Assembly: GCA_963839475.1 (NCBI GenBank)
Contig: CAWIVH010000005.1
Location: forward strand, 10,357 to 74,356
Direction: 5' to 3'
Origin: an uncultured Acidobacteriota bacterium
GTDB taxonomy: Bacteria > Acidobacteriota > UBA6911
DNA: 64,000 nucleotides
The position numbers and the translations under genes are program-made. Position 1 is the stretch's first letter. Every line of letters begins with the position of its first letter. This document shows, one piece after another, positions 6,407 to 33,197 of this stretch. The notes beneath the pieces are model-generated. The model saw only the letters and a list, made by a program, of their open reading frames with translations, was not told the DNA's origin and ran no database searches.

Positions 6407-6468
6407 GGCGCAACCTGGTCCCACGCATATGGATACGGGGTTGCGGCTCCAGGATCGGAAATGGAACC

Positions 6469-10922: not shown

Positions 10923-11278
10923 TTAGACCCGCGAATCCTTTCCAGGGAATGCCACCAGCGTCTGAGTATCCCAAGATACTCAGGCCTCTGTGGCTTCGGG
11001 GCTGTCGGGAGGCTGAAAAAAGTTGGACTAAATGCTGATAACAAAACAACTTAAATCTTAGTCACCACACTACGCCCTGAAACGTGAATTATAGCAACCG
11101 TCGGCCGTAAATCAAGCCGTGAGAGCGAAGAGGGAACTTGCCGGCACGTGCAGGCATGGCTCTCTGGCCCTGATTCTGCCGGGCGGAATCCAATTGAGTT
11201 TTGCAGGAGGCTTTGGTAGCTTTATGGGCGCTTGCGCCTGCTGAATTTGGAAAGGAAGTGCGCGAGCATCACACAAAA

Positions 11279-13015: not shown

Positions 13016-16000
13016 ATGCCCAAGCGAACCGATATCCACAAAATCCTGATAATAGGTTCAGGTCCGATCATCATCGGCCAGGCCTGCGAATTTGACTATT
13101 CCGGCACCCAGGCCTGCAAAGCCCTTCAAAGCGAGGGTTTTGAGGTTGTGCTGGTGAATTCCAATCCGGCGACCATAATGACCGATCCCGAGCTCGCGGA
13201 CCGGACCTATATCGAGCCATTGACCAGTGAGTCGGTGGCCGCCATTATCGCGCGGGAAAGGCCGGATGCGCTGCTCCCCACCGTGGGCGGGCAGACCGGG
13301 CTGAATCTCTCGGTGGAACTGGCTCGGGCCGGAATTCTCGACCATTACGGAGTGGAAATGATCGGCGCCAAGCTCCGGGCCGTGGAAGTCGCCGAGGACC
13401 GTCAGCTGTTCAAGGATGCAATGACGGAAATCGGGCTCCAATCGGCACGCTCCCGCGTCGTTCGCTCCCTTCACGAAGCTCAGGCTTTTCTGGAATCGAT
13501 CGGACTGCCCGCGATTATCCGCCCCAGCTTTACCCTGGGCGGCTCAGGCGGGGGGATCGCCTTCAATACCGAGGAATTCGACGAAATCATCGCCCGCGGG
13601 CTGGACATCTCCCCGGTACACGAGGTGCTGGTCGAGCAATCGCTGCTCGGCTGGAAGGAGTACGAGCTCGAGGTGATGCGGGACTTGGCCGACAATGTCG
13701 TTATCATCTGTTCGATCGAGAATTTCGATCCGATGGGAGTTCACACGGGAGACTCGATCACCGTTGCCCCCGCCCAAACCCTGACCGACCGGGAGTACCA
13801 GATCATGCGGGATGCGGCGATCCGCATTATCCGCAAAGTCGGTGTTGAAACCGGCGGATCGAACATCCAATTTGCGGTGCGCCCGGAGGACGGCTCGCTG
13901 GTGGTCATCGAGATGAATCCGCGTGTTTCCAGGAGTTCGGCCCTGGCTTCGAAAGCCACCGGATTCCCGATTGCAAAAATCGCGGCCAAGCTGGCCGTTG
14001 GTTATACGCTCGACGAAATTCCGAACGACATCACCAAAAAAACCCCGGCGAGTTTCGAGCCGACGATCGATTACGTGGTGGCCAAAATCCCCAAGTTCAA
14101 CTTCGAAAAGTTCGCTGAATCCGACCCTACCCTCGGCACTCAGATGAAATCGGTCGGCGAAGTGATGGCGATCGGGCGCACATTCAAGGAGGCCCTGCTC
14201 AAGGGGATCCGGTCCCTCGAGCGCGGGAAGGGGCTCATGTCGGAAAAAGTGGATCCGGAAAAGCTCTTCCACAATCTTGTCACGCCGGTTTCGGAGCGTT
14301 TGATGTACATCTATTACGCCCTGCTCCAAGGCCGTAGCGTCGAAGAGCTCCATGGCATGACGAAAGTGGACCCTTGGTTTCTCAGCCAACTGGCCGAGGT
14401 TGCGGCAATGCAATCCCAGATTTTGGGCAAGCAGCTGGAAAGTCTGCCCGAGGATCAGTTGAGAAGCTGCAAGCGAGCCGGTTTCTCGGACGAGATGCTT
14501 GCAGGGCTGCTGCAACAGCCAGACGGGTCTTCTCCCTCGGTTTATCAGGTCATGCAGCGGCGGCATGACCTCGGGATCCGGCCGGTTTATAAACGCGTGG
14601 ATACTTGTGCGGCTGAGTTTGAATCCCACACCCCCTATCTCTACTCCACCTACGAAGAGGAATGTGAGGCACAGCCGACGGATCGGAAAAAGATCGTAGT
14701 TCTCGGGAGCGGCCCGAACCGGATAGGGCAGGGCCTGGAATTTGATTACTGCTGTTGCCACGCATCTTTCGCATTGAAGGAAACCGGTTTTGAAACCATC
14801 ATGATCAATTGCAACCCGGAAACCGTTTCCACCGATTATGACACGTCGGACCGGCTTTATTTTGAACCCCTGACCTTCGAGGATGTCATGGAGGTCATGG
14901 CAGTGGAAAAACCCTGGGGCGTCATTGTGCAGTTCGGCGGGCAGACTCCGCTCAATCTGGCTCTTAAGCTCAAAGCTGCCGGCGTGCCCATCATCGGCAC
15001 GTCGCCGGAGAGCATCGATCTGGCCGAAGACCGGAAGCGCTTCGGACAACTCCTGACGGACCTGTGCATTCCCCAGCCCCCCAACGGGACCGCGCGATCG
15101 TTGGAAGAGGCGCGCGCCGTGGCGTCGCAAATCGGGTATCCGGTGCTGGTGCGGCCCTCGTATGTGTTGGGCGGCCGAGCCATGTCGATTGTCTATGACC
15201 AGGATGCACTCGACCGGTACATGACGACTGCGGTTTCGGCGTCCCCCGAGCACCCGGTGCTGATCGACATGTTTCTCGAAAACGCGTTCGAGTACGATGT
15301 TGACGCATTGTGCGATGGGGAACGGGTCATTATCGCCGGCGTGATGGAGCACATTGAAGAAGCCGGGATTCACAGCGGCGACAGTACCTGCGTCCTGCCC
15401 CCCATCATGGTAGAACTCGACGTTCTGGAACGGATGAAAGTTTTTACCCACAAGCTCGGCAAGGCCCTGAACGTGATCGGGCTGATGAATATCCAATTCG
15501 CGGTCCAGAAAAACAAGGTCTACGTCCTGGAAGTGAATCCTCGTGCCTCTCGCACCGTGCCGTACGTGAGCAAAGCCACCGGCGTTCCTTTGGCCAAGAT
15601 GGCGGCGCGGGTGATGACGGGGGAGAAGCTCCAAGACCTGGGTCTAATCGAAGAATTGCGAGTCAAGCACTGCTTCGTAAAGTCTCCTGTTTTCCCTTTT
15701 AACAAGTTTCCCGGAGTGGATACCATCCTCGGCCCGGAGATGAAATCCACCGGGGAGGTCATGGGTGTTTCCGACAGCTTCGGGAGCGCTTTTGCCAAAG
15801 CTCAGATTTCAGCCGGGATGAAGATACCGCGGACGGGCTCGGCATTTTTGAGCGTGAATGAAGGCGATAAGGAAGGACTGCTGCCGATTGCCCTCGATCT
15901 CAGCGAACTGGGATTCCATATCATCGCCACACGCGGCACGCAGCAATATCTGGCGGCTCATAAAGTGGAATCCGAGCCGGTTTTCAAAGTGGGTGAAGGC

Positions 16001-16261
16001 CGGCCCCACATCGTGGACCTGCTTAAAAGCGGGAAGATCGACCTGATCATCAACACCCCTCTCGGCCGGCAGTCGCACTATGACGAAAAGGCGATCCGGC
16101 GCGCCGCGACCACTCATATGGTGCCCTGTATAACCACTCTCTCCGGTGGCGCGGCGGTGGTCAGCGCGATCCGGGCGCTTCGGAGGGAAAAGCTCACCGT
16201 TCGGAGCCTGCAGGAGTATCACGGCCTTTTCAAGGAGCACGCTGCGCACCCCCACAAATGA
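13016..16261 (+). CDS. carB: carbamoyl-phosphate synthase large subunit
   Basis: [30 protein letters not shown], duplicated ATP-grasp domains, C-terminal MGS domain; 1081 aa. Confidence 0.99.
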
Positions 16262-16367
16262 GTTTTGCAGTAATTGCCGCCCCAATCAACGAACGCGAGG
16301 ATCGGGGCCGGGAAGACTGGATATTCCGATCCGCTCGCGCTGCCGAAAAATAGACCCTCCATTTGGC

Positions 16368-16394
16368 TAAAGCATTGCAGAATTTACACGATAA
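16368..16394 (+). promoter_or_regulatory. sigma28 (FliA/SigD)-type promoter upstream of cheA
   Basis: TAAA-N15-CACGATAA versus consensus TAAA-N15/16-GCCGATAA. Confidence 0.65.
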
Positions 16395-16441
16395 GAACCA
16401 CTTGAGCCTTCATTGAAGGGCCATGCATTGGGGCAACACAA

Positions 16442-18700
16442 ATGGAGAATGAGGAAATGAGTCATCCAACGCTGGGGGAAGGACCGGAGCGTTCATTGGA
16501 CGATGCACTCTCCCTTCTCATTCAAATTGAACCTTCCGAAAGGGAAGGATTCCACCGCCTTCATGAAATCCTGGAGCAGCTTGTAACCCATCACCGTTAC
16601 TCGGGACAGGCGCACGATTTAATTGCCGGCGCGAAAAAAAGTGTCCAGGACCTCCTGGAGGGACGAGTCGCAGACCCGCTCCAGGTCCTCCAGGACATTT
16701 CCATCGTGCTGGAGTCCGCAAGCTACTTGTTGGAGGATCTCTCGGTCAAATCAGAATCTTCGGCGCCAGCCCCGGCGAACCCTACGTGCCAATCGAAATC
16801 CGATCCGACGCCGGAAAATACATTGGCAGCGAAGCCTCAGCCTGCGCCGGCGACGCCAACTGGAGCCCTCGAAAGCGAGGCTCTCGCGCCGGAACCTCTC
16901 CCTCCCGACACCGATGCCGATTTGCTCAATGAGTTCGTGGTTGAGTCCAAGGAACTCCTGGAGCGAGCCGAGGTGGCTCTTCTCAGCCTCGAAACCAATC
17001 CGCAGGACGCTGAAGCTGTCAACACGATCTTTCGTGGTTTCCACACGATCAAGGGAACCTCGGCATTTCTCGGGCTGACGCGCATGTCCGGGTTGGCCCA
17101 TTGTGCGGAATCGCTGCTGAGTCGCGTCCGGGATAACGAAATCCGCTGCACAGGAGGATACGCCGACCTGGCCCTGCGCTCCGTGGATATGCTCAAGAGC
17201 CTTGTCCAGAGCGTTCAGAATGCCCTGGGTGGCGGCTTGATGACCGTGCCTCCCAAATACGAGGAACTCAAGTCGCTGCTCGCGAATCCCGAGGCGGCTG
17301 GCATTTCAGCGGAGCACGGTCCCGATTCGGGCGAGCCCGCACCGGCAAAAATGACAGAGAGGGAAGAATGGGATGCAGAGATCGAACATGCCGGGGAGCC
17401 GGTCACTCATGCCGATGAGGAGAAGGTCCAGGAGCCTCCTCCATTTAGAACCCCTGCATCCGGCCAGGCTGGGGGCGCCGCTCCCTCCCCGGTTCGTGCT
17501 GCCAAACTTGAGAAACAGGCCGATTCGTCGGTTCGCGTAAGCACCGACCGGTTGGACCGGCTGGTGGATATGGTGGGGGAACTTGTCATCGCCGACTCGA
17601 TGGTGGCACAGGATGACAGGGTGAGGCAGGGTGGAAACCACGATCTGATGCGCAAAGTCTCTCACCTCGGGAAAATAGTGCGAGAGCTGCAGGACCTCGC
17701 CATGTCGATGCGCATGGTGCCGCTCAAAGCCACATTTCAGAAAATGGGGCGGCTGGTGCGAGACCTGTCCCACAAAAGCGGCAAGAAGGTCCATCTCATC
17801 ACTGAGGACAACGATACCGAAATCGACCGGAACATGGTCGATATCATCAATGATCTGCTCGTACACATGGTGCGGAATTCAGTGGATCATGGCATAGAGC
17901 ACCCTGACGACAGGAAACGTACCAGCAAAGATGAGATGGGGACGGTCTTCCTGTCGGCCTCCCACTCCGGCGGAAATGTCGTCGTCCAGATCCGAGACGA
18001 CGGCAAAGGGCTGGATCGAAACCGGATATTCCAGAAGGCGGTCGAAAAAGGACTGGTGGACTCCGACAAGCCCATGTCCGACGCCGATGTCTTCAACCTG
18101 ATTTTTGCCCCGGGCTTCTCCACCGCTGACAAGGTCACAGACGTCTCCGGGCGCGGGGTTGGGATGGATGTTGTGCGCAAGGGGGTGGAGGCACTACGAG
18201 GCAGGATCGATATCCTATCGGAATTCGGCAAGGGGTGCATTTTTACGGTGCGGCTACCTTTAACGCTTGCCGTCACCGACGGCATGCTGATCCGGGTGGG
18301 GCAGGAACGTTATATCGTGCCAACAGCCAACATTCACTTGAGCTTCAGGCCGGAACCCGGCTCACTATCCACGATTGCCTCCAGAGGCGAGATGGTCATG
18401 CTGCGCGGGGAACTCATGCCCATGTTCCGCCTGCATAATTTGTTCAACATAGTTGGAGCGGTAGAAGATCCGACCAAGGGATTGCTGGTAGTCGTGGGTG
18501 ATGGAGAGCGCCGCTGCACGATCTTGGTCGATGAGTTGTTGGGGCAACAGCAGGTGGTCGCGAAATCTCTAGGTGAAGGATTGGGGAAAATTCAGGGCGT
18601 TTCGGGCGCCGCCATTCTTGGCGACGGCCGTGTGGGTCTGATAATCGATCCTTCGGAAGTAATCCAGACGGCAAGGCAATCTTCCGGCGTCACCGCCTGA
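16442..18700 (+). CDS. cheA: chemotaxis histidine kinase CheA
   Basis: HPt FRGFHTIKG, dimerisation RVSTDRLDRLVDMVGELV, HATPase HMVRNSVDHGIE/DDGKGL/GFST/GRGVGMDVV, C-terminal CheW domain. Confidence 0.97.
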   Translation: MENEEMSHPTLGEGPERSLDDALSLLIQIEPSEREGFHRLHEILEQLVTHHRYSGQAHDLIAGAKKSVQDLLEGRVADPLQVLQDISIVLESASYLLEDLSVKSESSAPAPANPTCQSKSDPTPENTLAAKPQPAPATPTGALESEALAPEPLPPDTDADLLNEFVVESKELLERAEVALLSLETNPQDAEAVNTIFRGFHTIKGTSAFLGLTRMSGLAHCAESLLSRVRDNEIRCTGGYADLALRSVDMLKSLVQSVQNALGGGLMTVPPKYEELKSLLANPEAAGISAEHGPDSGEPAPAKMTEREEWDAEIEHAGEPVTHADEEKVQEPPPFRTPASGQAGGAAPSPVRAAKLEKQADSSVRVSTDRLDRLVDMVGELVIADSMVAQDDRVRQGGNHDLMRKVSHLGKIVRELQDLAMSMRMVPLKATFQKMGRLVRDLSHKSGKKVHLITEDNDTEIDRNMVDIINDLLVHMVRNSVDHGIEHPDDRKRTSKDEMGTVFLSASHSGGNVVVQIRDDGKGLDRNRIFQKAVEKGLVDSDKPMSDADVFNLIFAPGFSTADKVTDVSGRGVGMDVVRKGVEALRGRIDILSEFGKGCIFTVRLPLTLAVTDGMLIRVGQERYIVPTANIHLSFRPEPGSLSTIASRGEMVMLRGELMPMFRLHNLFNIVGAVEDPTKGLLVVVGDGERRCTILVDELLGQQQVVAKSLGEGLGKIQGVSGAAILGDGRVGLIIDPSEVIQTARQSSGVTA

Positions 18701-18938
18701 TGCGGTTGGCGGAGTTTTAGCCGGTCGTGCCTCATCGCATATGTAGGCCGGATGTGCCCTCGAGAGCAAGCAGAGGAAAGTGAAAATACTACTGGAGATC
18801 GACAAGGTTTTGGCGACTCAGGAAGTCGTTGCCCTTCATGCGGCTTCCTAGGAGATTGGGAAGTCGTGGGGCAGCGGCCGGGCTCGGTTCCTGGATGCGG
18901 GGTTTTGAACGATACAACGAACATCAGGCAGGTAAGCT

Positions 18939-19421
18939 GTGAGACATGTAGTGGCAGTAGCCGACATGAAGATCTCCAATCAGCCGGGTGATGAAATAAT
19001 TACCTTTGCGCTGGGGAGCTGCCTCGGGATCACCGTTTACGATCCCGTCGCATTTGTCGGCGGGATGCTTCATGTGATGCTGCCGCTTTCGACTATCGAT
19101 CCAACCAAGGCTGCCGAGAATCCTTACATGTTTGTCGACACGGGAGTGCCTAGACTGTTCCTGGAAAGCTACAAAGCCGGCGCTTCGAAACAGCGGCTCG
19201 AGGTGAAAGTGGCCGGAGGGGCGTGCCCAAACGGGAAGGAGGACGACGACTACTTTCAAATCGGCAAAAGGAATTTTGTAATGCTCCGGAAGCTTCTGTG
19301 GAAAAACGGGGTTCTGCTCAAATCCAGCGACGTTGCCGGAACCCATTCGCGGACCATGAGCCTGGATATTGCAACGGGCAAAGTCAGTCTACGAATCAAT
19401 GGAGCTATAACGCAGCTCTGA
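18939..19421 (+). CDS. cheD: chemoreceptor glutamine deamidase CheD
   Basis: TFALGSCLGITVYDP, GGMLHVMLP, KVAGGA, IGKRN, DVAG..SRT. Confidence 0.95.
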   Translation: MRHVVAVADMKISNQPGDEIITFALGSCLGITVYDPVAFVGGMLHVMLPLSTIDPTKAAENPYMFVDTGVPRLFLESYKAGASKQRLEVKVAGGACPNGKEDDDYFQIGKRNFVMLRKLLWKNGVLLKSSDVAGTHSRTMSLDIATGKVSLRINGAITQL

Positions 19422-19452
19422 AAACCAATGCACCAAGTGAAGGAAACGGCTC

Positions 19453-20517
19453 GTGATCAAAGTCCTCATTGTGGATGATTCTGCGGTTGTACGCAAAGTG
19501 CTGACGGAAGAGCTCTCCAAATATGAAGATATAGAAGTGGTAGGGACCGCCATCGATCCCTATGTGGCACGCGAAAAAATCGTGAGCCTCCGTCCGGATG
19601 TCCTTACCCTCGACCTGGAAATGCCCCGCATGGACGGCCTGTCGTTCCTGTCGAGGCTGATGAAGCATTTCCCCCTGCCTGTTGTCGTCGTGAGTTCTCT
19701 GACTCCTCAGAATAGCGCTACGGCGCTCAGAGCCCTTGAACTAGGCGCCGTGGAAGTCGTGTCCAAGCCGGGATCGCAGTTTTCGATTCCTGACGTTCAC
19801 CGGCAGTTGATCCGGGCGATTAGAGCCGCTGCATCGGCTCAGGTCGGTGCCCTGAAATCCTCTGGAATTTCTGCGGGGACGGCTTCGGAAACCCCGTCGG
19901 TGCGCCTGTCTCCGCTGCATACCACCCACAAGGTGGTCGCCATTGGCGCTTCCACGGGTGGGACGCAAGCCCTGGAGGTGGTCCTGCAGCAAATGCCGGC
20001 GGATGCGCCCGGGACCGTAATCGTGCAGCACATGCCGGAGTTTTTCACTCAGTCTTTCTCCGAGCGCCTGAACAAAGTCTGCCGGATGGAAATCCGTGAA
20101 GCCAAGGACAGGGATGATGTCGTTCCCGGCGTGGTGCTGATTGCCCCCGGAAACCGCCATATGGTTTTGCAGGTGAGCGGTGCGCGATATGCGGTCCGCA
20201 TCAAGGATGGCCCGCCGGTCTACCACCAGCGGCCCAGTGTGGATGTGCTTTTCCAGTCGGTCGCTGAAAATGCGGGCCCCAATGCCGTTGGCGCCATACT
20301 GACAGGGATGGGCGCCGATGGGGCGAAAGGGCTGCTGGCGATGAGGAAAGCCGGTGCTCACACCCTGGCTCAAGACGAGCAGAGCTGCGTGGTTTTCGGG
20401 ATGCCCAAGGAGGCCATCAAGCTGGGTGCCGCGGAAACGATTGTTTCCCTCCAACAGGTAGCCGGAACCATCCTGAGGCTGGTGAACGAACGCCCGGGAA
20501 TACCCATTCGTGAATAG
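19453..20517 (+). CDS. cheB: chemotaxis methylesterase CheB (REC plus esterase)
   Basis: N-terminal receiver; catalytic GASTGG, VQHMP, LTGMGADGA. Confidence 0.97.
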   Translation: MIKVLIVDDSAVVRKVLTEELSKYEDIEVVGTAIDPYVAREKIVSLRPDVLTLDLEMPRMDGLSFLSRLMKHFPLPVVVVSSLTPQNSATALRALELGAVEVVSKPGSQFSIPDVHRQLIRAIRAAASAQVGALKSSGISAGTASETPSVRLSPLHTTHKVVAIGASTGGTQALEVVLQQMPADAPGTVIVQHMPEFFTQSFSERLNKVCRMEIREAKDRDDVVPGVVLIAPGNRHMVLQVSGARYAVRIKDGPPVYHQRPSVDVLFQSVAENAGPNAVGAILTGMGADGAKGLLAMRKAGAHTLAQDEQSCVVFGMPKEAIKLGAAETIVSLQQVAGTILRLVNERPGIPIRE

Positions 20518-20520
20518 GGA

Positions 20521-20988
20521 TTAGATCGCGGCTTCCTCGCTGCAGTAAAGCTCGATTTCCGCCCTACCAAAATCCAGGCCCAGGTTCGCCCGGGCGGCTA
20601 AACGGCCGCTTCCGGGCGAGACCGGATCGGCAGGATTGGCAAATACAACAGGCGCATCGAGATCAAAGACGAGCGCGCTTCCGGCAATCGCCGGCAGAAG
20701 GTTGCCGCATATAACATTAGCCGTTTCTTTGAGCGCATCCTCCTGCATTTCTTTGCTCGGGTCCGCATCGTCGCCAAGCATGTTGGACGCCAGCGCGGGC
20801 ACCACTTCACCGTAAATCCTGATCAGCAGGCTGCCGGCAAAAGGGCCGCGAAAAGACACGGCAACCGTGGCTTCCAGCAAGCTGTCTTTCTGCGCCTGGC
20901 TGATCTCGCGCGAGGACAGGATAAATCCAAGATCCTCAAAAATCTGCGCCGCTGTCCGGTAAAGGACCGCCTCCGTCTGCTTGTTCAT
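20521..20988 (-). CDS. cheX: CheX-like phosphatase (copy 1)
   Basis: VSFRGPFAG, DALKETANVICGNLL (ExxN), FDLDAP. Confidence 0.8.
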   Translation of the reverse strand: MNKQTEAVLYRTAAQIFEDLGFILSSREISQAQKDSLLEATVAVSFRGPFAGSLLIRIYGEVVPALASNMLGDDADPSKEMQEDALKETANVICGNLLPAIAGSALVFDLDAPVVFANPADPVSPGSGRLAARANLGLDFGRAEIELYCSEEAAI

Positions 20989-21364
20989 CCGCCATTCCTG
21001 TCATTCGAAAAATGGTTGAGCGAAGCGCTTCAGGCGTGAAGGGCTTGTGAACGAACTCCACGCCTTTGCGCTGAAGCAATTCAATTCTTGCCTGGCTGGT
21101 TTCCGTGGAAATGACTACGATCGGAGTTGCGGCCAAATCCGGATCCTGCCGCACACGGTCGATCATTTGCTCCCCGTTCATGATTGGCATATTGATGTCC
21201 ACCAAGGCCAGGTCAACCCAGTTCGATTTCAGCGATTCGAGCCCCTCCTGGCCGTTAGAAGCCTGATAGACCTCCCCCAAAGGCAGACCGGTCAGGCGCA
21301 ATACGCGGATCACCATGTTACGCATTACCGCGCTATCATCGACAACCAGTACATTCAGCGACAT
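20936..21364 (-). CDS. CheY-like single-domain response regulator
   Basis: VLVVDDS, LVDINMPIMNG, VISTE, HKPFT; 53-nt overlap with cheX copy 1. Confidence 0.9.
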   Translation of the reverse strand: MSLNVLVVDDSAVMRNMVIRVLRLTGLPLGEVYQASNGQEGLESLKSNWVDLALVDINMPIMNGEQMIDRVRQDPDLAATPIVVISTETSQARIELLQRKGVEFVHKPFTPEALRSTIFRMTGMADEQADGGGPLPDSGADF

Positions 21365-21436
21365 TCTTATCTCCGATATTCAGTTTCGGGGACTTGATTC
21401 CTTCAGCACTCCGGATGGAAGCCTGCGAATCGCCTA

Positions 21437-22276
21437 TCAGCCACTTTTTCTAAAATCCTGAAGCCAGATTGAGGTTTGGGCACAGACTCTTTCGAAGCCT
21501 TCGATCGTCAGCCCGATGCGTTCCCGGCAACCCGCGTCGTCGATGCGCATGTTGAGGGCAGCGGCCCCCAGTCCCACACCGATGGATTTCGCGGCCAGAT
21601 TCGCGAGCATTACCGCATCCAGGATCGGGGTCGGCTTTTCCGCCGGGTACAGGTGATGCATTTCAATGGCGTTTGTGATGTCTTCAGGAAAGCCCCATCG
21701 TCTGGCCATTGCGCCTCCGATCTCGGCGTGATCGCACCCGAAGAGCACCCGCTCGGCTTCTACAAACGACAACCTTCGTTCCTCGCAGGTTTCCAGAATC
21801 TTCGCTACGCTCGCTTCCAGGTAGCGCACCATGATCAGCTTGCCTATGTCGTGAACCAGAGCGGCGATTCCCGCCGCTTCGGGCACCTTCGATGGACGCG
21901 TTTCCTTGATGATCGCCTTCACTGCCAAAGAGGCGGCAGCGCCATGAAGCCATAAATCATCTTCAGATAGCTCATAGAGCGGCGCCGAGGCCTTCATCGA
22001 ACGGAAATGCTCGCCCAGCACCAGGTTCAGCAGCGTGGTGGTTCCAAGGCGAATGACAGCGTCGCGCACCCGATCAATCTGAAACCGGCCGCCATAGGCC
22101 GCCGAATTTGCCGCTCTCAGAATATTGGAGGCGACGGCGGCGTCATACTCGACTATCTGAATGATTTCCGCCGTACTCAGATCCTCACGGTTCAGGGCGA
22201 CGATCAACTTCTGCACCGTGATTGGAAGCGGGTCCAGGCGCTTGACGCCGGTCAAGAGTTTTTCAGGTATAGCCAT
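21437..22276 (-). CDS. HDOD domain protein
   Basis: LDPLP, YDAAVASNILRAANSAAY, AVIRLG, LVHDIGKL, DHAEIGGAMARRWGFPEDITNAIEMHH. Confidence 0.92.
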   Translation of the reverse strand: MAIPEKLLTGVKRLDPLPITVQKLIVALNREDLSTAEIIQIVEYDAAVASNILRAANSAAYGGRFQIDRVRDAVIRLGTTTLLNLVLGEHFRSMKASAPLYELSEDDLWLHGAAASLAVKAIIKETRPSKVPEAAGIAALVHDIGKLIMVRYLEASVAKILETCEERRLSFVEAERVLFGCDHAEIGGAMARRWGFPEDITNAIEMHHLYPAEKPTPILDAVMLANLAAKSIGVGLGAAALNMRIDDAGCRERIGLTIEGFERVCAQTSIWLQDFRKSG

Positions 22277-22314
22277 GCGAAATCGCCCTCTGGCCGCCAA
22301 CCGGCCAGTATTCC

Positions 22315-22341
22315 ATATCGGCCGTTTTCAAAATCGCTATA
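22315..22341 (-). promoter_or_regulatory. sigma28-type promoter upstream of HDOD gene
   Basis: Minus strand TATA-N15-GCCGATAT, with a perfect SigD-type -10. Confidence 0.65.
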
Positions 22342-22470
22342 GGTTGTTGTTGGGCACGCAAATACCGCCAGCGGTGCTGGTTGCTTTTCCAGTCCCACTA
22401 GCCTTGAATCCAGTCTGCTCAGGGCGCTTGCAGCCGCCTTTGTTAGCCGGGCAAATCCGGGGCAGCTCAA

Positions 22471-23688
22471 TCAGGCTGTGGATGCCGGGACCGGCGCATC
22501 CAGGGCGCTGGCAAGCGAACTGAAAACCGGAAAGTCCTTCGTTTCCGAACTCTGCCCCAGGAATTCACGCACTTTTTCGGACTCAGAGACAAACCTCAAG
22601 TCAAGTCCGAGTGCCTGAATCTCATAAATAAGGTTGTGAAAGCGTCTCACAATGGCGACTCCCGATATGATTCCCGCCGATACCTGGATCACCAGGCGGC
22701 TCTGGCCGGATTCGGCCATTCGCCTGATTTCCCCGATTACTTCGGTGGCTAGCGACTGCACGAATCCGGCGAAATCCGGATCCCCGCCCTCGGGACATGA
22801 CAGGATTCGTGCCTCTCCCGACCGTGACAGGCATCCCTCTTCCACCTCGTCCGCGGGATAGAATCCGTTCGGCTGCATCGGCTTTTCGATCAGTTTGACG
22901 ACCTCCTCACGCGTGAAGGGGATCAACAAAAACTCAATGATACCCTTGGCCTTGTAATCGAGGATCGGCCGCAAAGCCGTTCTCAAAGCCATCCCGACGA
23001 CCCGTTTGCCGCGCATCATTTTTTTATGGGTCAGCTGAAATGTCTCGAAAATCTCCGCCGTTCCGTTGTTGGGAAGGGTCAGGTTCAGGAACAGCCAATC
23101 ATGGTGGCCCGATGCTATCTTTTTCATCGCCATGCCATTATTGGTTTCCGTTTCAAGGTCGAATCTATCGCCCATGTAGTCGCGCAGCATTTTAAGCAGC
23201 TCTTCATTATGGTCCACTGCCAGGACCTTGGTTTTGGCGGGGCCCGCTTTCGCCGCGGCGTTCGCCTGCACTTCCGCTTCGGTCGGCGGCGTTTCACCTG
23301 CATAGAGCTCAAGTACCGGATTGACTTTGGACAGCAGCACTTCGCGAGTGAACGGTTTGGCGATGTAGTCTTTCAAGCCAAGCTTGATCAATTTGAAAAC
23401 AGTCTCCTTGACTGTTTCGGTGGTCAGCATCATGACTGGAATCGGTTTCAAGGCCGGATCGGTTTTCAGTTCGACCAGGGTGTGGTAGCCGTCCAGTACC
23501 GGCATGTTGTAATCCAGGAGGATGAGATCCGGCTTTTCCTTTTGCGCAACAGCAACGCCGACCTGGCCGTTCTCAGCCTCGAGAATCTCCACTCCGAAAG
23601 GTCGCAAATGCTTGCCCACGATCATGCGAAGTGTTTTGCTATCGTCAATGGTCAGGATTTTTTTCATAGCCGTTCTTGGCTCCTTCAA
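22471..23688 (-). CDS. response regulator with REC, pseudo-REC and C-terminal STAS-like domain
   Basis: Canonical REC (TIDDS, LLDYNMP, AKPF); second REC-like domain (AVDH, FLNLTLP, LIPF); C-terminal region with STAS-like pattern ending FPVFSSLASAL. Confidence 0.75.
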   Translation of the reverse strand: MKEPRTAMKKILTIDDSKTLRMIVGKHLRPFGVEILEAENGQVGVAVAQKEKPDLILLDYNMPVLDGYHTLVELKTDPALKPIPVMMLTTETVKETVFKLIKLGLKDYIAKPFTREVLLSKVNPVLELYAGETPPTEAEVQANAAAKAGPAKTKVLAVDHNEELLKMLRDYMGDRFDLETETNNGMAMKKIASGHHDWLFLNLTLPNNGTAEIFETFQLTHKKMMRGKRVVGMALRTALRPILDYKAKGIIEFLLIPFTREEVVKLIEKPMQPNGFYPADEVEEGCLSRSGEARILSCPEGGDPDFAGFVQSLATEVIGEIRRMAESGQSRLVIQVSAGIISGVAIVRRFHNLIYEIQALGLDLRFVSESEKVREFLGQSSETKDFPVFSSLASALDAPVPASTA

Positions 23689-23718
23689 TAATTTTGTATT
23701 TCTGAAACCGGGATGACG

Positions 23719-24210
23719 CTATCGGGATTTCTCAACCACCAATTGAACCCTGAATTGGTACTTGCCGGCCAGGACCCCGACCTGCAGGTTCTGAGCATCG
23801 GCCGGCGGATAAGTTGAATATTCCCTTCCTTCAATCACGGAAGGCATCGAGAGCTTGAATGCCTCCCCGTCCTGGCTGAGATTGTTTTTCAGTCCGCCGG
23901 CGAGCATGTTGACCAGTTCTCCGGCCGCGTCCCTGACGGTTTCATCCACGTCCTCTATTTCCGTTCCAAGGAGGCCGGATGCCAAAAGGCACGCGTTTTG
24001 CCGGTCAAAATGCAATGCCAAAAAACCGGAAATTTTTCCCGCAAATCCGATGATCGAGGACAAACCGATTTCACCCGTAATGCTTTCGGCGGGAACCAGG
24101 CCGGCCTGCTCGCTGTACATGTTCGCGAATATGTCCTTGGCTGCAGAATCGATGCCCGCCACAAAATCAGGGTGAATATCCGTCGTCGGAACGGAAACAG
24201 GAATGTGCAT
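23719..24210 (-). CDS. cheX: CheX-like phosphatase (copy 2)
   Basis: SSIIGFAG, DAAGELVNMLAGG (ExxN), LSMPSVIEG; ATG 24210 with GGAGGA RBS. Confidence 0.88.
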   Translation of the reverse strand: MHIPVSVPTTDIHPDFVAGIDSAAKDIFANMYSEQAGLVPAESITGEIGLSSIIGFAGKISGFLALHFDRQNACLLASGLLGTEIEDVDETVRDAAGELVNMLAGGLKNNLSQDGEAFKLSMPSVIEGREYSTYPPADAQNLQVGVLAGKYQFRVQLVVEKSR

Positions 24211-24236
24211 AGATGTCCTCCAATCAACACACCTCT

Positions 24237-24264
24237 TTATCGGAGTCGGCGTTGGCATCCATTA
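24237..24264 (-). promoter_or_regulatory. sigma28-type promoter upstream of cheX copy 2
   Basis: Minus strand TAAT-N16-TCCGATAA. Confidence 0.6.
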
Positions 24265-24502
24265 CCAAAAGAATCCGGAAAAGAGCGGGCCGCGTTTTGG
24301 GGTGTGTTGAACGTCGCTTGGAAGGGGTTTGGCTGCCTCTCCGGATGGAGCGGAATGGGATGGAAATCGCAGAGCAAGATGAAAGTCCTGCTTGACTTCG
24401 AGCGCTCGCTCACCACGAGCGGCCTTGCCGAATTTCGAGCGGCTAAAATACCGAAAGGCGAGGTTTTGAGGTGATTCTTGGTAGAGACGGGAGGGAAGTT
24501 TC

Positions 24503-24530
24503 TAAATTAGGGAGGTGAAACTGTCGATAT
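24503..24530 (+). promoter_or_regulatory. sigma28-type promoter upstream of cheR
   Basis: (C)TAAA-N16-GTCGATAT. Confidence 0.6.
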
Positions 24531-24594
24531 ACTTTAGCAATCGTCACTGGGGAAGAAAGTCCCAGTACCGGCCCGTGCCCGGAAATTGGAAGGA

Positions 24595-25461
24595 ATGATG
24601 GGGATCGAAAGCCCACTGGAAGACTCGTCGCCCTGGAATTCTGCCGAACTTACGGATCGTCATTTCCGGGTGATCAGCGGCATTCTCCACCAAAGATGCG
24701 GCATCAAGCTGACGGAAGGTAAGGAAGGACTGGTCAAAGCCAGGCTGTCCAAACGGCTTCGTCATCTGGGCCTCGGTGGTTTTGATCAGTACCTTGATTA
24801 TCTGAACAGTGATGCGGGTTCGGGCGAACTGTACACGATGATCGATTCCCTTACGACCAACAAAACGAGTTTTTTCCGCGAAGACGCTCATTTTCATTTC
24901 CTGCGCGACCATATTCTGCCCGCTGTGCGCCAGCAGGGAGGCAGACTGAGGATTTGGAGCGCGGCATGCTCATCGGGGGAAGAGCCCTATTCCATTGCAC
25001 TTCTGCTGAAGAACGTTTGGCCCGATATCCAAAAGTGCGATGTAAAAATCCTGGCCACCGACATCTCCGCGCGTGTGCTGGACCAGGCCAAATCGGGAAT
25101 TTACAGTGGGGAAGCAGTAGCGGACGTTCCCCGTCCGATGCTTGAGCGATATTTCACCGCTTGCGGTTCGGCAGCCAATCGAGAGTTCAAGATCAACGAT
25201 GAGGTAAGATCGCTCATTCGCTTCGCACGCCTTAACCTGATGGAGGAATGGCCCATGACGGGGCCGTTCAACCTGATCTTCTGCCGGAATGTGATGATCT
25301 ATTTCGACAAAGAGACACAGAAGAAACTTGTTCGCAGATTTTGGGAACTGCTCGAGACCGATGGGTACCTTTTTGTAGGTCATTCGGAGAGCCTTACCGC
25401 TACCTCCAAAGACTATAGGTATATTCAGCCGGCAACCTACCGAAAACACTGCATGTGCTGA
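24595..25461 (+). CDS. cheR: chemotaxis methyltransferase CheR
   Basis: LTTNKTSFFRE, RIWSAACSSGEEPYSIA, ATDIS, FCRNVMIYFD, LFVGHSE. Confidence 0.97.
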   Translation: MMGIESPLEDSSPWNSAELTDRHFRVISGILHQRCGIKLTEGKEGLVKARLSKRLRHLGLGGFDQYLDYLNSDAGSGELYTMIDSLTTNKTSFFREDAHFHFLRDHILPAVRQQGGRLRIWSAACSSGEEPYSIALLLKNVWPDIQKCDVKILATDISARVLDQAKSGIYSGEAVADVPRPMLERYFTACGSAANREFKINDEVRSLIRFARLNLMEEWPMTGPFNLIFCRNVMIYFDKETQKKLVRRFWELLETDGYLFVGHSESLTATSKDYRYIQPATYRKHCMC

Positions 25462-25793
25462 TGGAGCTCTGCAATGACGTCAACCCGGCTGAGGAACGCC
25501 TGCCGCATCTTCATGGCAATGTCTGAACATATGTTGATTTAAATAAAGTATTTGAGCCAACTTATCTAAAGCATTACTTGAAGTATTGCCCTTCTTTCCG
25601 GATAACGATATCCTCCTAATTCCGCCTGATCTTGCCCGTGCTGTCTTTCCCTGGATCGAGGGGTGCAGTTTGAATCCGGCAAACCGACGCAGCCCTGGCC
25701 AGCAAAGCCAAAGAGCCTTTTGACCGAAGCGGGCGATCGGCTGAAAAAAATAACTCCAAATCTCCATCCGAAGTTTTGCAGCTGAGTACTTTC

Positions 25794-25821
25794 TAAAGAA
25801 GAATCGGTCGGCTGCCGAAAT
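25794..25821 (+). promoter_or_regulatory. sigma28-type promoter upstream of MCP
   Basis: (C)TAAA-N16-GCCGAAAT. Confidence 0.6.
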
Positions 25822-25948
25822 AGCCTAGGTGCGCGGATCTTGGTGAATTTTCGCACGCGCTGCAATTTCTGATGATTCCGGATTGTCATGCGAAAACAGG
25901 CAAAATCCTACTCAGCAGACCGGCTTCGACAACGATGAGGATATCGGT

Positions 25949-28591
25949 ATGGGATTCAAAGGTTTGAAAAGTCTCGCCCTTAAGATTGTAGTTTCAGTCG
26001 CCGCTGTGACCATCATCGGCATAGGTACTCTTACATATCTCCAGATGCAGAAGAACGAAGCATTATTCCTATCGAATCTGGAAGAATCTACTGCCGACCT
26101 GAATAGCACCATCCTGGCTGCCCTGAAAAACGGCATGCTTAAAAATGACACCGAAGGAGTTGATAAGCTGGTCGAGCAGACTGGGAAGATCGCTACCATC
26201 AAGCAGATCTTCATAACGGACGAGACCGGAAAAATTACCCGGACTTCCGGTAGCAATAAGGGAACGATGATCGATGCCGCGCTGATGAAAAGTACGACAG
26301 CGTCTTCCGCAGGCGTTTCAAAAATGGCCACGGCGGGCGATGGTTCGCCCTATGTTTCCAGCTTCAGCCCAATCCGCGCTGAAAAGGACTGCCTGACCTG
26401 TCACTCCCAGAAGGAAGGTGAGCCTCTGGGCTACATCAGCGTTGATGCCTGGGCTAAGCGCGGATACGAACAATTGAGCGCTGCCCGAAACATGTCGCTT
26501 CTGCTCGGGCTGATCATCATGCTTCTGATGACCGTGGCAATTTACTTCGTCGCCCAATCGATGGCAAAACCGCTGGTCAAGCTCTCCGATAATGCGCGCA
26601 ATATAGCCATGGGCGACTTTGAGCAGAATATCGGCCACCACTCGGTGGATGAAATCGGGGTCCTCGCGGATTCTTTCCGAGCCCTCCGATCTTATGCCAA
26701 GGAAGCAGCTTCGGCCGCGGAAGCGCTCGGAAACGGAGATCTATCCGTCCAGGTTAAGCCTAAATCCGAGCGCGACGTCCTCTCCCTGAGTCTTAAACAT
26801 GCGATCGAGACCCAGCAAAAGCTGGCCGCTGAGACTGGAAAGCTCAGCCAGGCTGCCATTGATGGAAAATTGTCAATCCGGGGAGATTCCACGCAGTTCA
26901 ATGGCTGTTATCGCGACCTCGTCCAGGGGATCAACAACACGCTCGATGCGGTTATTGGCCCGCTGCAGGTGGCGGCGAACTACGTAGACCGGATCTCGAA
27001 GGGAGACATCCCAACGCGGATCGCAGACAAGTACAACGGGGATTTCAACGAGATCAAGAACAACCTGAACACCTGCATCGACGCGGTAAACATGCTGGTG
27101 GCGGACGCCGCGATGCTGTCTAAAGCTGCTGTGGAAGGAAAGCTTGATACCCGGGCGGATGCGGCGAAGCATGGCGGAGACTTCCGCAAGATCGTGCAAG
27201 GTGTGAACGACACGCTGGATGCGGTGATCGGGCCGCTGAAAGTGGCGGCGAACTACGTGGACCGGATCTCGAAGGGTGACATCCCGGCGAAGATCACCGA
27301 TAAATACAGCGGGGACTTCAACGAGATCAAGAACAACGTGAACACTTGCATCGACGCGGTGAACCTGCTGGTAGGGGATGCGAACATGCTGGCGAATGCG
27401 GCGGTGGAAGGGAGGCTGCAGACGCGGGCGGAGGCGGCGAAACACGGCGGGGACTTCCGGAGGATCGTGCAGGGAGTGAACGACACGCTCGATGCCGTGA
27501 TCAGCCCTGTGAACGAGGCGGCGGAGGTTCTGGAGAAGGTCGCGGCGAAGGACCTGACTGCGCGGGTGAAAGGTGACTACCGGGGAGACCTGGCGAAGCT
27601 GAAGAACGTGCTGAACCAGGCGGTGCAGAACCTGGATGATGCGCTGACGCAGGTGATGTTCGGGGCGGAGCAGGTGACATCGGCGGCGACGCAGATCAGC
27701 GCGGGGAGCCAGTCGTTGTCGCAGGGGGCGTCCGAGCAGGCAAGCTCGCTGGAAGAAGTATCGTCGAGCCTGCAGGAGATGTCGTCAATGACGAAGCAGA
27801 ACGCGGCGAACGCGAAGGAAGCGCGAGGGCTATCAGACGGGGCGAGGTCGTCGGCGGAGAAGGGCGTGGAGAGCATGAAGCGGTTGTCGGAGGCGATCGC
27901 AAAGATCAAGGGGAGTTCCGACGCGACGGCCAAGATCGTGAAGACGATCGACGAGATCGCGTTTCAGACAAACTTGCTGGCGCTGAACGCGGCGGTGGAA
28001 GCGGCGCGTGCGGGGGATGCGGGGAAGGGGTTTGCGGTGGTGGCCGAGGAGGTGCGGAACCTGGCGATGAGAAGCGCAGAGGCGGCGAAGAACACGGCTA
28101 ACCTGATCGAGGAGTCGGTGAAGAACGCGGAAGGCGGAGTATCGATCAACCAGGAGGTGCTCAAGCAGCTGGTGGAGATCAACGGACAGGTGAACAAGGT
28201 AAGCGAGGTAATGGCGGAGATCGCGGCGGCGTCGGACCAGCAAAGCCAGGGTGTGACGCAGGTAAACACGGCGGTGGAGCAAATGAACCAGGTGACGCAA
28301 CAGACAGCGGCGAACGCGGAGGAATCGGCGAGCGCGGCGGAAGAGCTGTCGGGGCAGTCTGAGGAGATGAAGGGGATGGTGGCAACCTTCAGGCTTTCGA
28401 CGGTTGCGGCGGGCAGCGGGCATCGCGGGGGAACTGCAAAAACCACATTGAGGGTTCAGATGCCGCAGAGGCGGCTGGCGGTGCCGAGGCCTGGAACTGC
28501 GAAACCCGCTCCCGCAGCGGCGTGGGGCCCATCTCCGGCAAAGCTGATACCTCTGGATGACGATGAAGAGCTTATCCTGAAAGAGTTTTAG
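25949..28591 (+). CDS. methyl-accepting chemotaxis protein with CxxCH periplasmic sensor and poly-HAMP region
   Basis: TM1, periplasmic domain with KDCLTCH, TM2, HAMP repeats, signalling hairpin [35 protein letters not shown]; ATG 25949 chosen. Confidence 0.96.
26941..27486 (+). repeat. 273-bp (91 aa) tandem intragenic repeat encoding HAMP pairs
   Basis: GCT(C/G)GATGC recurs at 26941, 27214 and 27487; unit [42 protein letters not shown]. Confidence 0.9.
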
Positions 28592-28606
28592 TCCGTGGGG
28601 GACAGG

Positions 28607-28644
28607 AAGCCCGGGCTGGTCTGAAATGCCGGCTCGGGCTTTTT
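28607..28644 (+). terminator. intrinsic terminator-like hairpin between mcp and cheW
   Basis: AAGCCCGGGCTGG-loop-CCGGCTCGGGCTT followed by a T run. Confidence 0.7.
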
Positions 28645-28684
28645 GAATCGGGAGTTGCAGGGTGAGCCAGGAAGGGAGCCATCG

Positions 28685-29191
28685 ATGGTCGCAGTAAACG
28701 CAAAGCGAATCGATTCGGGGAGCATATCCGGGACGGTTGGAGGCAAGTTTTTAACATTTTTCCTCGCAGCGGAAGAGTACGGGATCGAGATCCTGAAGGT
28801 GCATGAGATCATCGGGATGATGCTGATCACGAGCGTGCCGCGCACACCGGAGTTCATCCGGGGAGTAATCAACCTGCGAGGGAAGGTGATTCCGATCGTA
28901 GACTTGAGGCTGAAGTTCGGAATGGAGCCAAAGGAAAAGACCGAGGAAACCTGCATCATCGTCGTGCATGTGGAGGGAGTAGAAATCGGGATCATGGTGG
29001 ACCGGGTGTCCGAGGTGCTGAACATCGCATCCGAGGAAATAGAAGCCCCCCCGTCATTCGGTGCTGATGTCAACACGGATTTCATTCTGGGATTGGGAAA
29101 ATCGCAAGGCAAGGTCAAGATCCTGCTCGATATCGATCGCGTGTTGTCCGCGAGCGAACTTATCGACATCAGTGGGGCCAAAGTATCGTAG
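28685..29191 (+). CDS. cheW: chemotaxis adaptor CheW
   Basis: FLTFFLAAEEYGIEI, VPRTPEFIRGVINLRGKVIPIVDL, GIMVDRVSEV, LLDIDRVL. Confidence 0.96.
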   Translation: MVAVNAKRIDSGSISGTVGGKFLTFFLAAEEYGIEILKVHEIIGMMLITSVPRTPEFIRGVINLRGKVIPIVDLRLKFGMEPKEKTEETCIIVVHVEGVEIGIMVDRVSEVLNIASEEIEAPPSFGADVNTDFILGLGKSQGKVKILLDIDRVLSASELIDISGAKVS

Positions 29192-29266
29192 AAATGAATG
29201 CATCCCGGGCTTTATAAAAGCACGGCTAAGTACCGCACCGATCCCGAGTGCAGCCGGGGGGCGAAA

Positions 29267-29755
29267 TCAGATGGCTTGTGTGATCAATTGGACCAGAAAA
29301 CGATGAGTCCCCGCGGTAACTCCCAACATCATATTCTGCGCATTCACGGGTGGGTAGGTTTTGTACCCTTTCCCTTCAATCACCGTTGGAATGGATATTT
29401 TCAAGGTATCCTTGGCGCCGCTGATCCGGTTTTTAAATCCGCCGGCGACCATGTTCGCCATTTCACCCATAGCGTCCCGGATCATCTCATCGCCCTCCTG
29501 AACTTCCATTCCCAGAAGAGCCGAGGCGATTTTGCTCGCCGAACTGCGGCTGAAGTGCAGGCTTAATACTCCTGACATGTTGCCGGCGAACCCGATGATG
29601 GCAGACATCCCTATTTCCCCCGGTACTTCTTCCTTGGGGATGAGGCTCGCCTGCTCGCTGAACATGCTTAGGAAGATCTCCTTGAGCGTCTGATCGATTT
29701 CGTTCTTGAAGTCGGGTGGCGCAATGCTTCCCTGCATTGGCGATGGGCCATGCAT
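29267..29755 (-). CDS. cheX: CheX-like phosphatase (copy 3; close paralogue of copy 2)
   Basis: SAIIGFAG, DAMGEMANMVAGG (ExxN), ISIPTVIEG. Confidence 0.88.
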   Translation of the reverse strand: MHGPSPMQGSIAPPDFKNEIDQTLKEIFLSMFSEQASLIPKEEVPGEIGMSAIIGFAGNMSGVLSLHFSRSSASKIASALLGMEVQEGDEMIRDAMGEMANMVAGGFKNRISGAKDTLKISIPTVIEGKGYKTYPPVNAQNMMLGVTAGTHRFLVQLITQAI

Positions 29756-29795
29756 AGAGATCCCTCCTCACCATTCCATGGTAATCATGAAACCA

Positions 29796-29823
29796 TTATC
29801 GGTGGATGCCGTCGATATCTTTA
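29796..29823 (-). promoter_or_regulatory. sigma28-type promoter upstream of cheX copy 3
   Basis: Minus strand TAAA-N16-ACCGATAA. Confidence 0.68.
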
Positions 29824-30049
29824 CCGAATAGTGACAGTGCTTACGGAGTCAGGAAGGCCGCTCGGGACCAATGGGGCGCAGATCGTCATAAACACATCCG
29901 CGTTGATTAGATAAAGTATTTTATGGTTTGCGGGTTGCGCCAGACCATCCAATGCAAAGCTCCATGAAATGAGGTGTGGGCTTAACGGATAGGAAAGGAT
30001 ACCTGCTGCAGGGGAATGGGAAAACTCCGGCAGAAGGGACGGCTTTAGG

Positions 30050-30526
30050 TTACGGTTTCGGTTCCGGCGGAGACTCCGGATTCTCTTCCGTTGCTTTTTG
30101 GGGGTCGGCCTCTGGTTGTCGGGCCGGGTTTTCCTGCCCGGGCATCCCGATGTTTGGGAACAGTTCGAATGCCGTGCCTTCGTGAATCAGATGCACACCT
30201 TCGGTTTGAAGCCTCACGAAGTGGGTGCAGTATTTTCGGCTGTCCCCCCCCATGCAGTGATCCACGCAGAATAGATCGGTATCCGTGCAGTTGACGCATT
30301 CGCCCAGGGAAACGCACACCTTGGGAACTGTGATCCCGCAGGTGCTGCACAGGGTGAAGAGGTTTTCGCTTTCAACATAACGGTCGCAGCTGGGCAGTGC
30401 CGAGTTGTTCTCCAGGTAGCCGTAAATTCGGCAGCCCATGAAGATATGGCTTCCGCCGCTCCCGGCAGCTTCGATCTGTGCCAGGCTTTCATCCAGCCAG
30501 TTGATGCAATTCCTGCAATTGATCAT
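30050..30526 (-). CDS. cysteine-rich hypothetical protein
   Basis: 158 aa; 12 Cys in the first ~100 aa (three CxxC, one CxxxC); acidic Pro-rich tail; 40 nt downstream of glmU. Confidence 0.7.
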   Translation of the reverse strand: MINCRNCINWLDESLAQIEAAGSGGSHIFMGCRIYGYLENNSALPSCDRYVESENLFTLCSTCGITVPKVCVSLGECVNCTDTDLFCVDHCMGGDSRKYCTHFVRLQTEGVHLIHEGTAFELFPNIGMPGQENPARQPEADPQKATEENPESPPEPKP

Positions 30527-30565
30527 GGTCCGGTATCATTTCTGCCGCATCCATCAGGCGACGCC

Positions 30566-31957: not shown

Positions 31958-32080
31958 AGGAGTGACCCGGATTCCATGAAGCGACAATCCTGTTGTTTGA
32001 TTTGCGTGCAACGAGGGTTTTGGATCTGATGTCGGTGGTGGAGGCACCTCTGCATTCCGCAGGCCTTCCGCCGGTCCAGT

Positions 32081-32905: not shown

Positions 32906-32989
32906 CCATTTTACCTTAAATTCAACATTTTCAATAACTTATACTGTTTTTAATTTCGGCCAAAAAATGTGAGTTATTATTAGGAGAAT

Positions 32990-33005
32990 TTGACTGATAA
33001 GTCAA
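32990..33005. promoter_or_regulatory. inverted repeat, candidate operator in the divergent TPR/mglB intergenic region
   Basis: TTGACT-GATA-AGTCAA in AT-rich intergenic DNA. Confidence 0.4.
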
Positions 33006-33197
33006 GGGTAAGATCAGGCGCACTTGGACCAGGACCGTTTGCCGGTGATTCTTATCGCACGTAAGTGTTTATTCAGCACTAGTTTCTGTTTTTTTTGCCA
33101 TGCCATGCAAATTCCTCGATTGAATCATTTTTAAGAATGAATAAGATAGTCTTGTACGCTGGCAAATCCATGACAGCGCAAGTGGGTTTGGAATCCG

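Follow-up and report, generated by a model that had tools for sequence, protein, structure and literature searches.

Candidate sigma-28-type promoters before six units of a fragmented chemosensory island in an uncultured Acidobacteriota genome

We analyzed a 64-kb stretch of DNA from an uncultured Acidobacteriota bacterium (contig CAWIVH010000005.1, positions 10,357 to 74,356), here called the window, which carries a chemosensory gene island with carAB, glmU, a TPR gene, and mglBA as its neighbors. Short strings that resemble promoters of the sigma-28 (FliA/SigD) type stand before six transcription units of this island, and these strings are our main subject. By Pfam, the island encodes a complete core chemotaxis set (cheA, cheW, mcp, cheY, cheR, and cheB) together with cheD and three copies of cheX. 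An earlier reading made from the letters alone (the sequence-only reading) had labeled the genes correctly, save for one response regulator that it called REC-STAS and that we call REC-x. The genes and units, all assigned by Pfam, are as follows, in positions of the window (ORF, open reading frame; nt, nucleotides).

16442-18700, plus strand: cheA, preceded by carA-carB
18939-19421, plus strand: cheD
19453-20517, plus strand: cheB
20521-22276, minus strand: the HDOD-cheY-cheX1 unit
21437-22276 (longest ORF to 22300), minus strand: HDOD, start corrected
20936-21364, minus strand: cheY
20521-20988, minus strand: cheX1
22471-24210, minus strand: the cheX2-REC-x unit, with a 30-nt gap between its genes
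23719-24210 (longest ORF to 24258), minus strand: cheX2, start corrected
22471-23688, minus strand: REC-x, a response regulator
24586-25461, plus strand: cheR
25883-28591, plus strand: mcp
28685-29191 (longest ORF from 28643), plus strand: cheW, 168 amino acids, supported also by a gene call on L053
29267-29755, minus strand: cheX3, a one-gene unit with glmU beyond it

Two start codons were moved inward from the ends of the longest ORFs. The start of cheX2 was corrected to the ATG at 24210, with the ribosome-binding site GGAGGA, and that of HDOD to the ATG at 22276, with the ribosome-binding site AGAGGG, as in relative L056. With these corrections, the promoter-like strings of both genes lie upstream of the coding sequence and no longer inside it. 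The cheX3 product is a paralog of that of cheX2 (51% identical by BLASTP); in relatives L113 and L111, the ortholog of cheX2 is the cheX copy located before REC-x.

An exact check in the window recovered all six of the strings that the sequence-only reading had quoted, each in its place and on its strand:

16368-16394, plus strand: cheA site, TAAAG-N14-CACGATAA (that is, TAAA-N15-CACGATAA), 47 nt from the end of the -10 box to the cheA ATG at 16442
22315-22341, minus strand: HDOD site, TATAG-N14-GCCGATAT (that is, TATA-N15-GCCGATAT), 38 nt from the -10 end to the HDOD ATG
24237-24264, minus strand: cheX2 site, TAATG-N15-TCCGATAA (that is, TAAT-N16-TCCGATAA), 26 nt from the -10 end to the ATG at 24210
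24503-24530, plus strand: cheR site, TAAAT-N15-GTCGATAT (that is, TAAA-N16-GTCGATAT), 55-67 nt from the -10 end to the cheR start
25794-25821, plus strand: mcp site, TAAAG-N15-GCCGAAAT (that is, TAAA-N16-GCCGAAAT), 61-67 nt from the -10 end to the mcp start
29796-29823, minus strand: cheX3 site, TAAAG-N15-ACCGATAA (that is, TAAA-N16-ACCGATAA), 40 nt from the -10 end to the ATG at 29755

With the corrected starts, every site lies on the coding strand, 26 to 67 nt 5' of a start codon. The -10 boxes all contain the CGA core and have zero to two mismatches to GCCGATAW, the cheA box being the one with two, and the paired boxes agree with the FliA/SigD consensus at 10 to 11 of 12 positions. Four sites have TAAA as the -35 box, HDOD has TATA, and cheX2 has TAAT; five of the six have a G at position 5 (TAAAG), a feature missed by the sequence-only reading that fits the extended sigma-28 -35 box. 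Two sites (cheA and HDOD) have an N15 spacer between TAAA and the 8-mer, and the other four have N16, which is also the usual length in relatives. Sigma-28 promoters typically have a spacer of about 15 nt between these elements, with one extra base tolerated in the systems that have been studied.

Chance is excluded as the source of the six sites by counts and shuffles in the window. The pattern TAAA-N15/16-NNCGAWAW matches four times, against 0.67 expected, and all four matches are named sites. The pattern TAAA-N15/16-GCCGATAW with at most one mismatch also matches four times in both strands of the 64 kb (128 kb of strand), again only at named sites; with at most two mismatches, it matches 26 times, against 11.7 +/- 3.6. 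To control for the AT-richer composition of intergenic DNA (49-56% GC here, 56% overall), the upstream regions, 180-200 nt each, were shuffled individually with dinucleotides preserved. The probability of a correctly oriented match with up to two mismatches was then 0.006-0.035 per region, and each of the six regions has one. All six chemotaxis units have such a match upstream, whereas of the roughly 20 remaining unit starts in the window only two do (Fisher p = 1.2e-4); of those two, one lacks the CGA core and the other is the TPR site discussed below. The loosest pattern that covers all six sites (TAWW-N15/16-NNCGAWAW) matches the window 12 times, 10 times between 16322 and 29823, and the extra matches there at 16322 and 25584 score low (8.0 and 11.1 bits). 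Ten pairs of sigma-70-like hexamers were found in 16000-33300, none of them in the six upstream regions.

A seventh candidate, TAAT-N15-GCCGAAAT before the TPR gene (32953-32979), was discarded on three grounds: its low score of 10.6 bits, its overlap with the best sigma-70-like promoter (TTGACT-18-AATAAT) of the TPR-glmU upstream region (window 32953-33005, minus strand), and its failure to be recovered by the scan in relative L006.

The sites recur among relatives. The sequencing runs that contain the window sequence are soil, wetland, and sediment metagenome DNA only. Full-length REC-x relatives in the genome collection come from metagenome-assembled genomes of Acidobacteriota at about 45% identity, a metagenome collection and a protein database add loci with REC-x identity up to 55%, and the closest REC-x relative, P0002, is 84% identical at the protein level; carB is 80% identical to that of relative L008. 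The relatives have the genes of the island too, HDOD, REC-x, and a pair of CheX copies among them, but arrange them differently. A common arrangement is [cheR<-cheW<-mcp] [cheX->] [<-cheX1<-cheY] [REC-x->cheD->cheB->HDOD->cheA->cheW], and in L113 and L114 the order is TPR->glmU->orf->cheX->REC-x->cheA->cheW. In more than 30 relatives' loci, HDOD, REC-x, and the CheX copies travel with cheA, cheW, cheR, cheB, cheD, cheY, and mcp despite rearrangement. Nothing else connects HDOD, REC-x, and the CheX copies with the pathway as strongly as this shared neighborhood, which bears out the link that the sequence-only reading had drawn from promoters.

A matrix built from the six sites, as that reading had suggested, was scanned over the oriented upstream regions of 30 non-redundant relatives, where forward matches outnumber reverse ones (10 against 2 at 13 bits or more, and 9 against 1 at 14 bits or more). 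Among che-labeled genes, 32 of 76 have a site of at least 10 bits upstream, compared with 8 of 58 other genes (p = 2.9e-4). Most of the others that reach 12 bits adjoin the cluster, namely flbD and a small ORF that heads an operon of REC-HD-GYP and GNAT genes. Conversely, a matrix made from the relatives only, run over the window on both strands, placed five of the six sites at ranks 1 to 5, with cheX2 first (19.9 bits), cheX3 second (18.7), cheA third (16.6), and cheR fourth (16.5). An expectation-maximization-like iterative refinement of the matrix on the relatives drifted and over-fitted and was dropped in favor of these cross-trained matrices. Among strand-biased 6-mer counts in the relatives, CTAAAG and CGATAA came near the top and were not significant after correction for multiple testing.

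Conservation can also be seen at individual genes. When the DNA before cheX2-type genes was aligned for six lineages, 12 of 14 invariant columns fell in TAA-G and TCCGATAA; the box is 26 nt from the ATG in the window and 25-28 nt from it in L113 as well as L111. For HDOD, the invariant columns shared with L056 and L111 include TAT..GGCCGATA, the ribosome-binding site, and the ATG. At both genes, the boxes account for most of what is invariant in upstream DNA that has otherwise diverged. Before cheA, four relatives have TAAA-N15/16-(G/A)CCGATT(T/G) and a fifth has TAAT-N16-GCCGATTT. Where REC-x heads its own operon in relatives, TCA(A/T)G-N-TCGATAAG is the sole conserved intergenic block, found in 12 of 14 sequences.

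Two side observations concern the DNA before REC-x. In L001-L008, L064, L067, L071, and L076, the block TCGATAAGGTGATCGCATG is conserved well past the -10 box (alignment A1) and may be a 5'-leader or operator element. In the window itself, a weak sigma-28-like string, TCAAT-N15-CCCGATAG (11 bits, window 23719-23746, minus strand), falls within the 3'-terminal part of cheX2, 30 nt ahead of REC-x, and resembles the TCAAG-type REC-x promoter of the relatives.

The link of the motif to flagella comes from relatives only. Orthologous che clusters adjoin flbD-motAB in L002, L005, and L007. In L007, a one-mismatch site, TAAC-N16-GCCGATAT, lies 31 nt before flbD-motA-motB, with the genes confirmed by Pfam; in L005, a similar site with two mismatches precedes ORFs assigned to flbD-motA-motB by homology only. 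Genes for NeuB and a CMP-sugar synthase lie beside the flbD-motAB-type loci of relatives.

The boxes thus exist with a consistent orientation and at promoter distance, occur far more often than chance would allow, and are kept by relatives at orthologous positions. We consider it likely, at a probability of roughly 75%, that the six sites are functional FliA/SigD-type (sigma-28) promoters that place a fragmented chemosensory island under one alternative-sigma switch. A sigma-28 factor expected in this genome would read the six sites, and transcription is predicted to begin some 6-8 nt downstream of every -10 box. The units would be cheA(-cheD-cheB), HDOD-cheY-cheX1, cheX2-REC-x, cheR, mcp (with cheW by read-through), and cheX3. 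This regulon would be co-expressed with the flagellar late genes, and the chemoreceptor, the kinase, the adaptation enzymes, the three CheX phosphatases, HDOD, and REC-x would be made only after the motility apparatus.

A number of observations weigh against the sigma-28 interpretation. No fliA, flgM, flagellin, or motor gene lies within the window, no fliA was found among the annotated ORFs in the relatives' flanks, and no flagellin gene was seen in the window or in the relatives' loci. The sequence is in no RNA run; of the single late-class regulon that had been proposed, the oriented, conserved sigma-28-type elements stand, while the "late class" is something we infer. Four of the six spacers exceed the canonical N15 by one base, and the -10 boxes are off consensus at mcp (GCCGAAAT) and cheA (CACGATAA). 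The mcp site, with a T-to-A change in its -10 box, is the weakest of the six and ranks only 13th in the window with the relatives-only matrix (13.5 bits). Strictly orthologous footprints were obtained for cheX2 and HDOD only, and what backs the cheR, mcp, and cheX3 sites is recurrence at the level of the family. Finally, relative L110 has the full set of genes in a single operon without any sigma-28-like site: on a 6.9-Mb contig, at 2879-11185, co-directional cheA-cheR-cheD-cheY-cheX-cheB-HDOD-cheX-REC-x follow a PAS-HisKA (PAS-histidine-kinase) gene.

Some genes of the island also lack a site of their own. The sequence-only reading held that all six units carry one; the six that it named do, but cheW and cheD-cheB do not. 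The statement thus goes too far, and it takes a count of six units for granted. An intrinsic terminator hairpin followed by a U-run (U5) was found by folding between mcp and cheW (28604-28644, plus strand), with a stability of -34.5 kcal/mol (z -4.8) that none of 200 shuffles equaled, and the site scan found no sigma-28-like site between this terminator and the likely cheW start at 28685. Partial read-through of the terminator after mcp would probably give a lower cheW:mcp ratio. Nor does the 238-nt gap between cheA and cheD (18701-18938) contain a sigma-28-like site, its best score being 6 bits. Both absences count against the sigma-28 interpretation.

The same gap is non-coding in the window, whereas relatives have cheW there, and a search of it turned up neither an ORF nor a promoter match nor a clear terminator. 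Scans of the window for Rfam families and tRNAs were empty, so that no riboswitch accounts for the long spacer between cheR and mcp.

Among other explanations, the one that survives best is that the sites are promoters of a different group-3 sigma factor with sigma-28-like specificity, either a dedicated paralog or a partner-switched one, with no tie to flagellar late genes. It would fit a window without flagellar genes, an island flanked by mglB-mglA and the TPR gene, and spacers that are mostly N16, and the STAS-like domain of REC-x hints at partner switching. We nevertheless regard it as unlikely, given that the motif precedes flbD-motA-motB in two relatives, that the cluster lies beside flagellin-glycosylation-type genes, and that so many positions of the boxes match the FliA/SigD consensus.

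It is very improbable that the boxes are binding sites of a transcription factor, with no sigma recognition involved. The motif is bipartite, with a fixed spacer of 15 or 16, strict orientation, and a set range of distances from start codons; it has no dyad symmetry, and no sigma-70 promoter is present as an alternative. Such a factor could explain why conservation continues past the -10 box before REC-x in relatives (TCGATAAGGTGATCGCATG).

For cheA only, a sigma-54 promoter might overlap the proposed -35 box. The weak string TGGCTAAAGCATTGCA at 16364-16379, which lies 62 nt from the ATG, has the GG-N10-GC frame with two mismatches to TGGCAC-N5-TTGCW; in addition, the proposed -10 box of cheA has two mismatches of its own. 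We give this little credence: sigma-54-like strings are not enriched (21 vs. 30 expected), the island has no gene for an enhancer-binding protein, and TAAA-N15/16-GCCGATTT-type sites precede cheA in relatives. Chance matches in AT-richer intergenic DNA, picked by eye with the degenerate pattern that the sequence-only reading allowed itself, are effectively refuted by the shuffles, the ranks under the relatives-only matrix, and the conservation of the boxes.

Sigma-28 control of che and mcp genes is already textbook knowledge for E. coli, Salmonella, and B. subtilis. The class 3 FliA regulon of E. coli and Salmonella includes motAB-cheAW, tar-tap-cheRBYZ, tsr, and aer, and the E. coli FliA consensus is TAAAGTTT-N11-GCCGATAA, its -10 box having an invariant CGA core. 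The window shares with these organisms the TAAAG -35 element, the nCCGATAW -10 element with its CGA core, targets that include a receptor, cheA and cheW, cheR and cheB, and cheY, and the use of several separate promoters for one pathway. It differs from them in having six small units on both strands with mostly N16 spacers, in sites known from the sequence alone, and in its gene content: the island lacks cheZ and has three CheX, CheD, HDOD, and a REC-REC-STAS-like protein, and the window has no fliA or flagellar genes. In B. subtilis, SigD recognizes TAAA-N15-GCCGATAT and directs transcription of mcp genes, motAB, and hag. The boxes are the same here, including the GCCGATAT variant, which is found at HDOD, and CheD and CheC/CheX-type phosphatases are also shared; however, most che genes of B. 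subtilis lie in a long fla/che operon and not in many SigD-driven units. In addition to the che targets in E. coli and Salmonella, sigma-28 sites have been predicted for che cluster 1 and fliC of Geobacter sulfurreducens (Tran et al. 2008, PMC2577667), a CheD and CheX organism where the assignment is likewise computational. Geobacter has one site per cluster, in one of its six to seven clusters (PMC2577667), whereas here each major fragment of a single cluster has a site, with conservation across lineages.

Current understanding is not overturned. What gives the case some modest interest is its lineage, the many separate promoters (the paralogs cheX2 and cheX3 each have their own), the presence of HDOD and REC-x among the targets, and a pattern in which promoters are retained or multiply as the cluster breaks up. 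If our interpretation is true, the logic of sigma-28, in which chemotaxis proteins are made only when motility is on, extends to an uncultured lineage, probably of Acidobacteriota, whose promoters are not described in the literature we searched. TAAAG-N15-nCCGATAW could then serve as a promoter model for annotating such genomes. Regulatory and neighborhood evidence would together mark HDOD, the REC-REC-STAS-like regulator, and the three CheX phosphatases as working parts of the pathway. The arrangement may also be a case of regulon coherence under operon fragmentation, where each piece keeps or gains the same promoter, while the relative with an unfragmented operon (L110) has none.

REC-x itself is more complex than its first label implied. 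The REC part of "REC-STAS" is solid (CheY-like, 1.8e-27), but the label omitted a second REC-like domain, and the STAS match is below threshold (E = 0.07). An AlphaFold2 model from an 80-sequence alignment (pLDDT, the predicted local distance difference test score, 90.4) has three domains. The first is a CheY-like REC and the next is REC-like, the two together resembling the REC-REC part of PleD in Foldseek; the third, at the C-terminal end (about residues 275-398), has an alpha/beta fold. STAS is detected in 29 of 80 members of the REC-x family, with a best E of 1.8e-4, and is the only recurrent non-REC family among them. A profile search of the PDB for STAS was negative, as was an hhalign comparison with a hand-entered SpoIIAA sequence, and Foldseek matches with the full model were swamped by REC. 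The REC-STAS label thus seems plausible for REC-x.

In Pseudomonas aeruginosa, the HptB-HsbR-HsbA partner switch acts on FlgM and FliA. That system resembles the present one in linking a phosphorelay-controlled STAS protein to sigma-28, as REC-x has a CheY-like receiver and a STAS-like end, but the domain order of REC-x differs, its STAS domain is only putative, and no anti-sigma gene was seen. REC-x, which itself stands behind a sigma-28-type candidate promoter, might conceivably be a phosphorylation-controlled anti-anti-sigma factor that acts on a FlgM-like anti-sigma, with CheA activity feeding back on the sigma factor that expresses the island, though we think this very unlikely. If true, such a loop would represent chemotaxis-to-transcription partner switching in Acidobacteriota.

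The top-scoring sigma-28-like sites in the relatives (TAAAG-N15-GTCGATAA, 17.9 bits) stand before an ORF of 103-106 amino acids whose family was not recognized. This ORF is the first gene of an operon that also encodes a REC-HD-GYP protein and a GNAT acetyltransferase and that adjoins flbD-motAB; the block is absent from the window. As a candidate FlgM the ORF was rejected, since its sequence cannot be recognized as one and the window contains no homolog. The loci are:

L002, 1417-3837
L003, 3448-3826
L005, 4732-7181
L007, 3239-5689

Other features of the window lie outside the question of promoters. CheA has an N-terminal extension of about 160 residues before its Hpt domain (window 16442-16920, plus strand) that has no Pfam match and is kept in relatives, whose alignments begin at residues 12-30. 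The TPR gene, a Cys-rich ORF of 154-158 amino acids, and a divergent pair of Roadblock/MglB-like and small-GTPase/MglA-like genes adjoin the che cluster, also in distant relatives; the Cys-rich ORF lies at window 30050-30526 and is 69% identical in L113. We take these genes to be a conserved polarity-type module beside the chemotaxis genes, found at the following loci:

Window, 32081-34318
L006, 19351-21167
L113, 1542-5804

Further along, on the minus strand at window 34960-36550, two ORFs (34960-35886 and 35297-36550) overlap in different frames and both belong to the amino-acid permease family, one matching its C-terminal part and the other its N-terminal part. This pair is likely the result of a frameshift, in the form of either a pseudogene or an assembly error. 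On the same strand, window 56841-59762 encodes a 973-amino-acid fusion of a glycoside hydrolase family 3 domain and a beta-lactamase-family domain.

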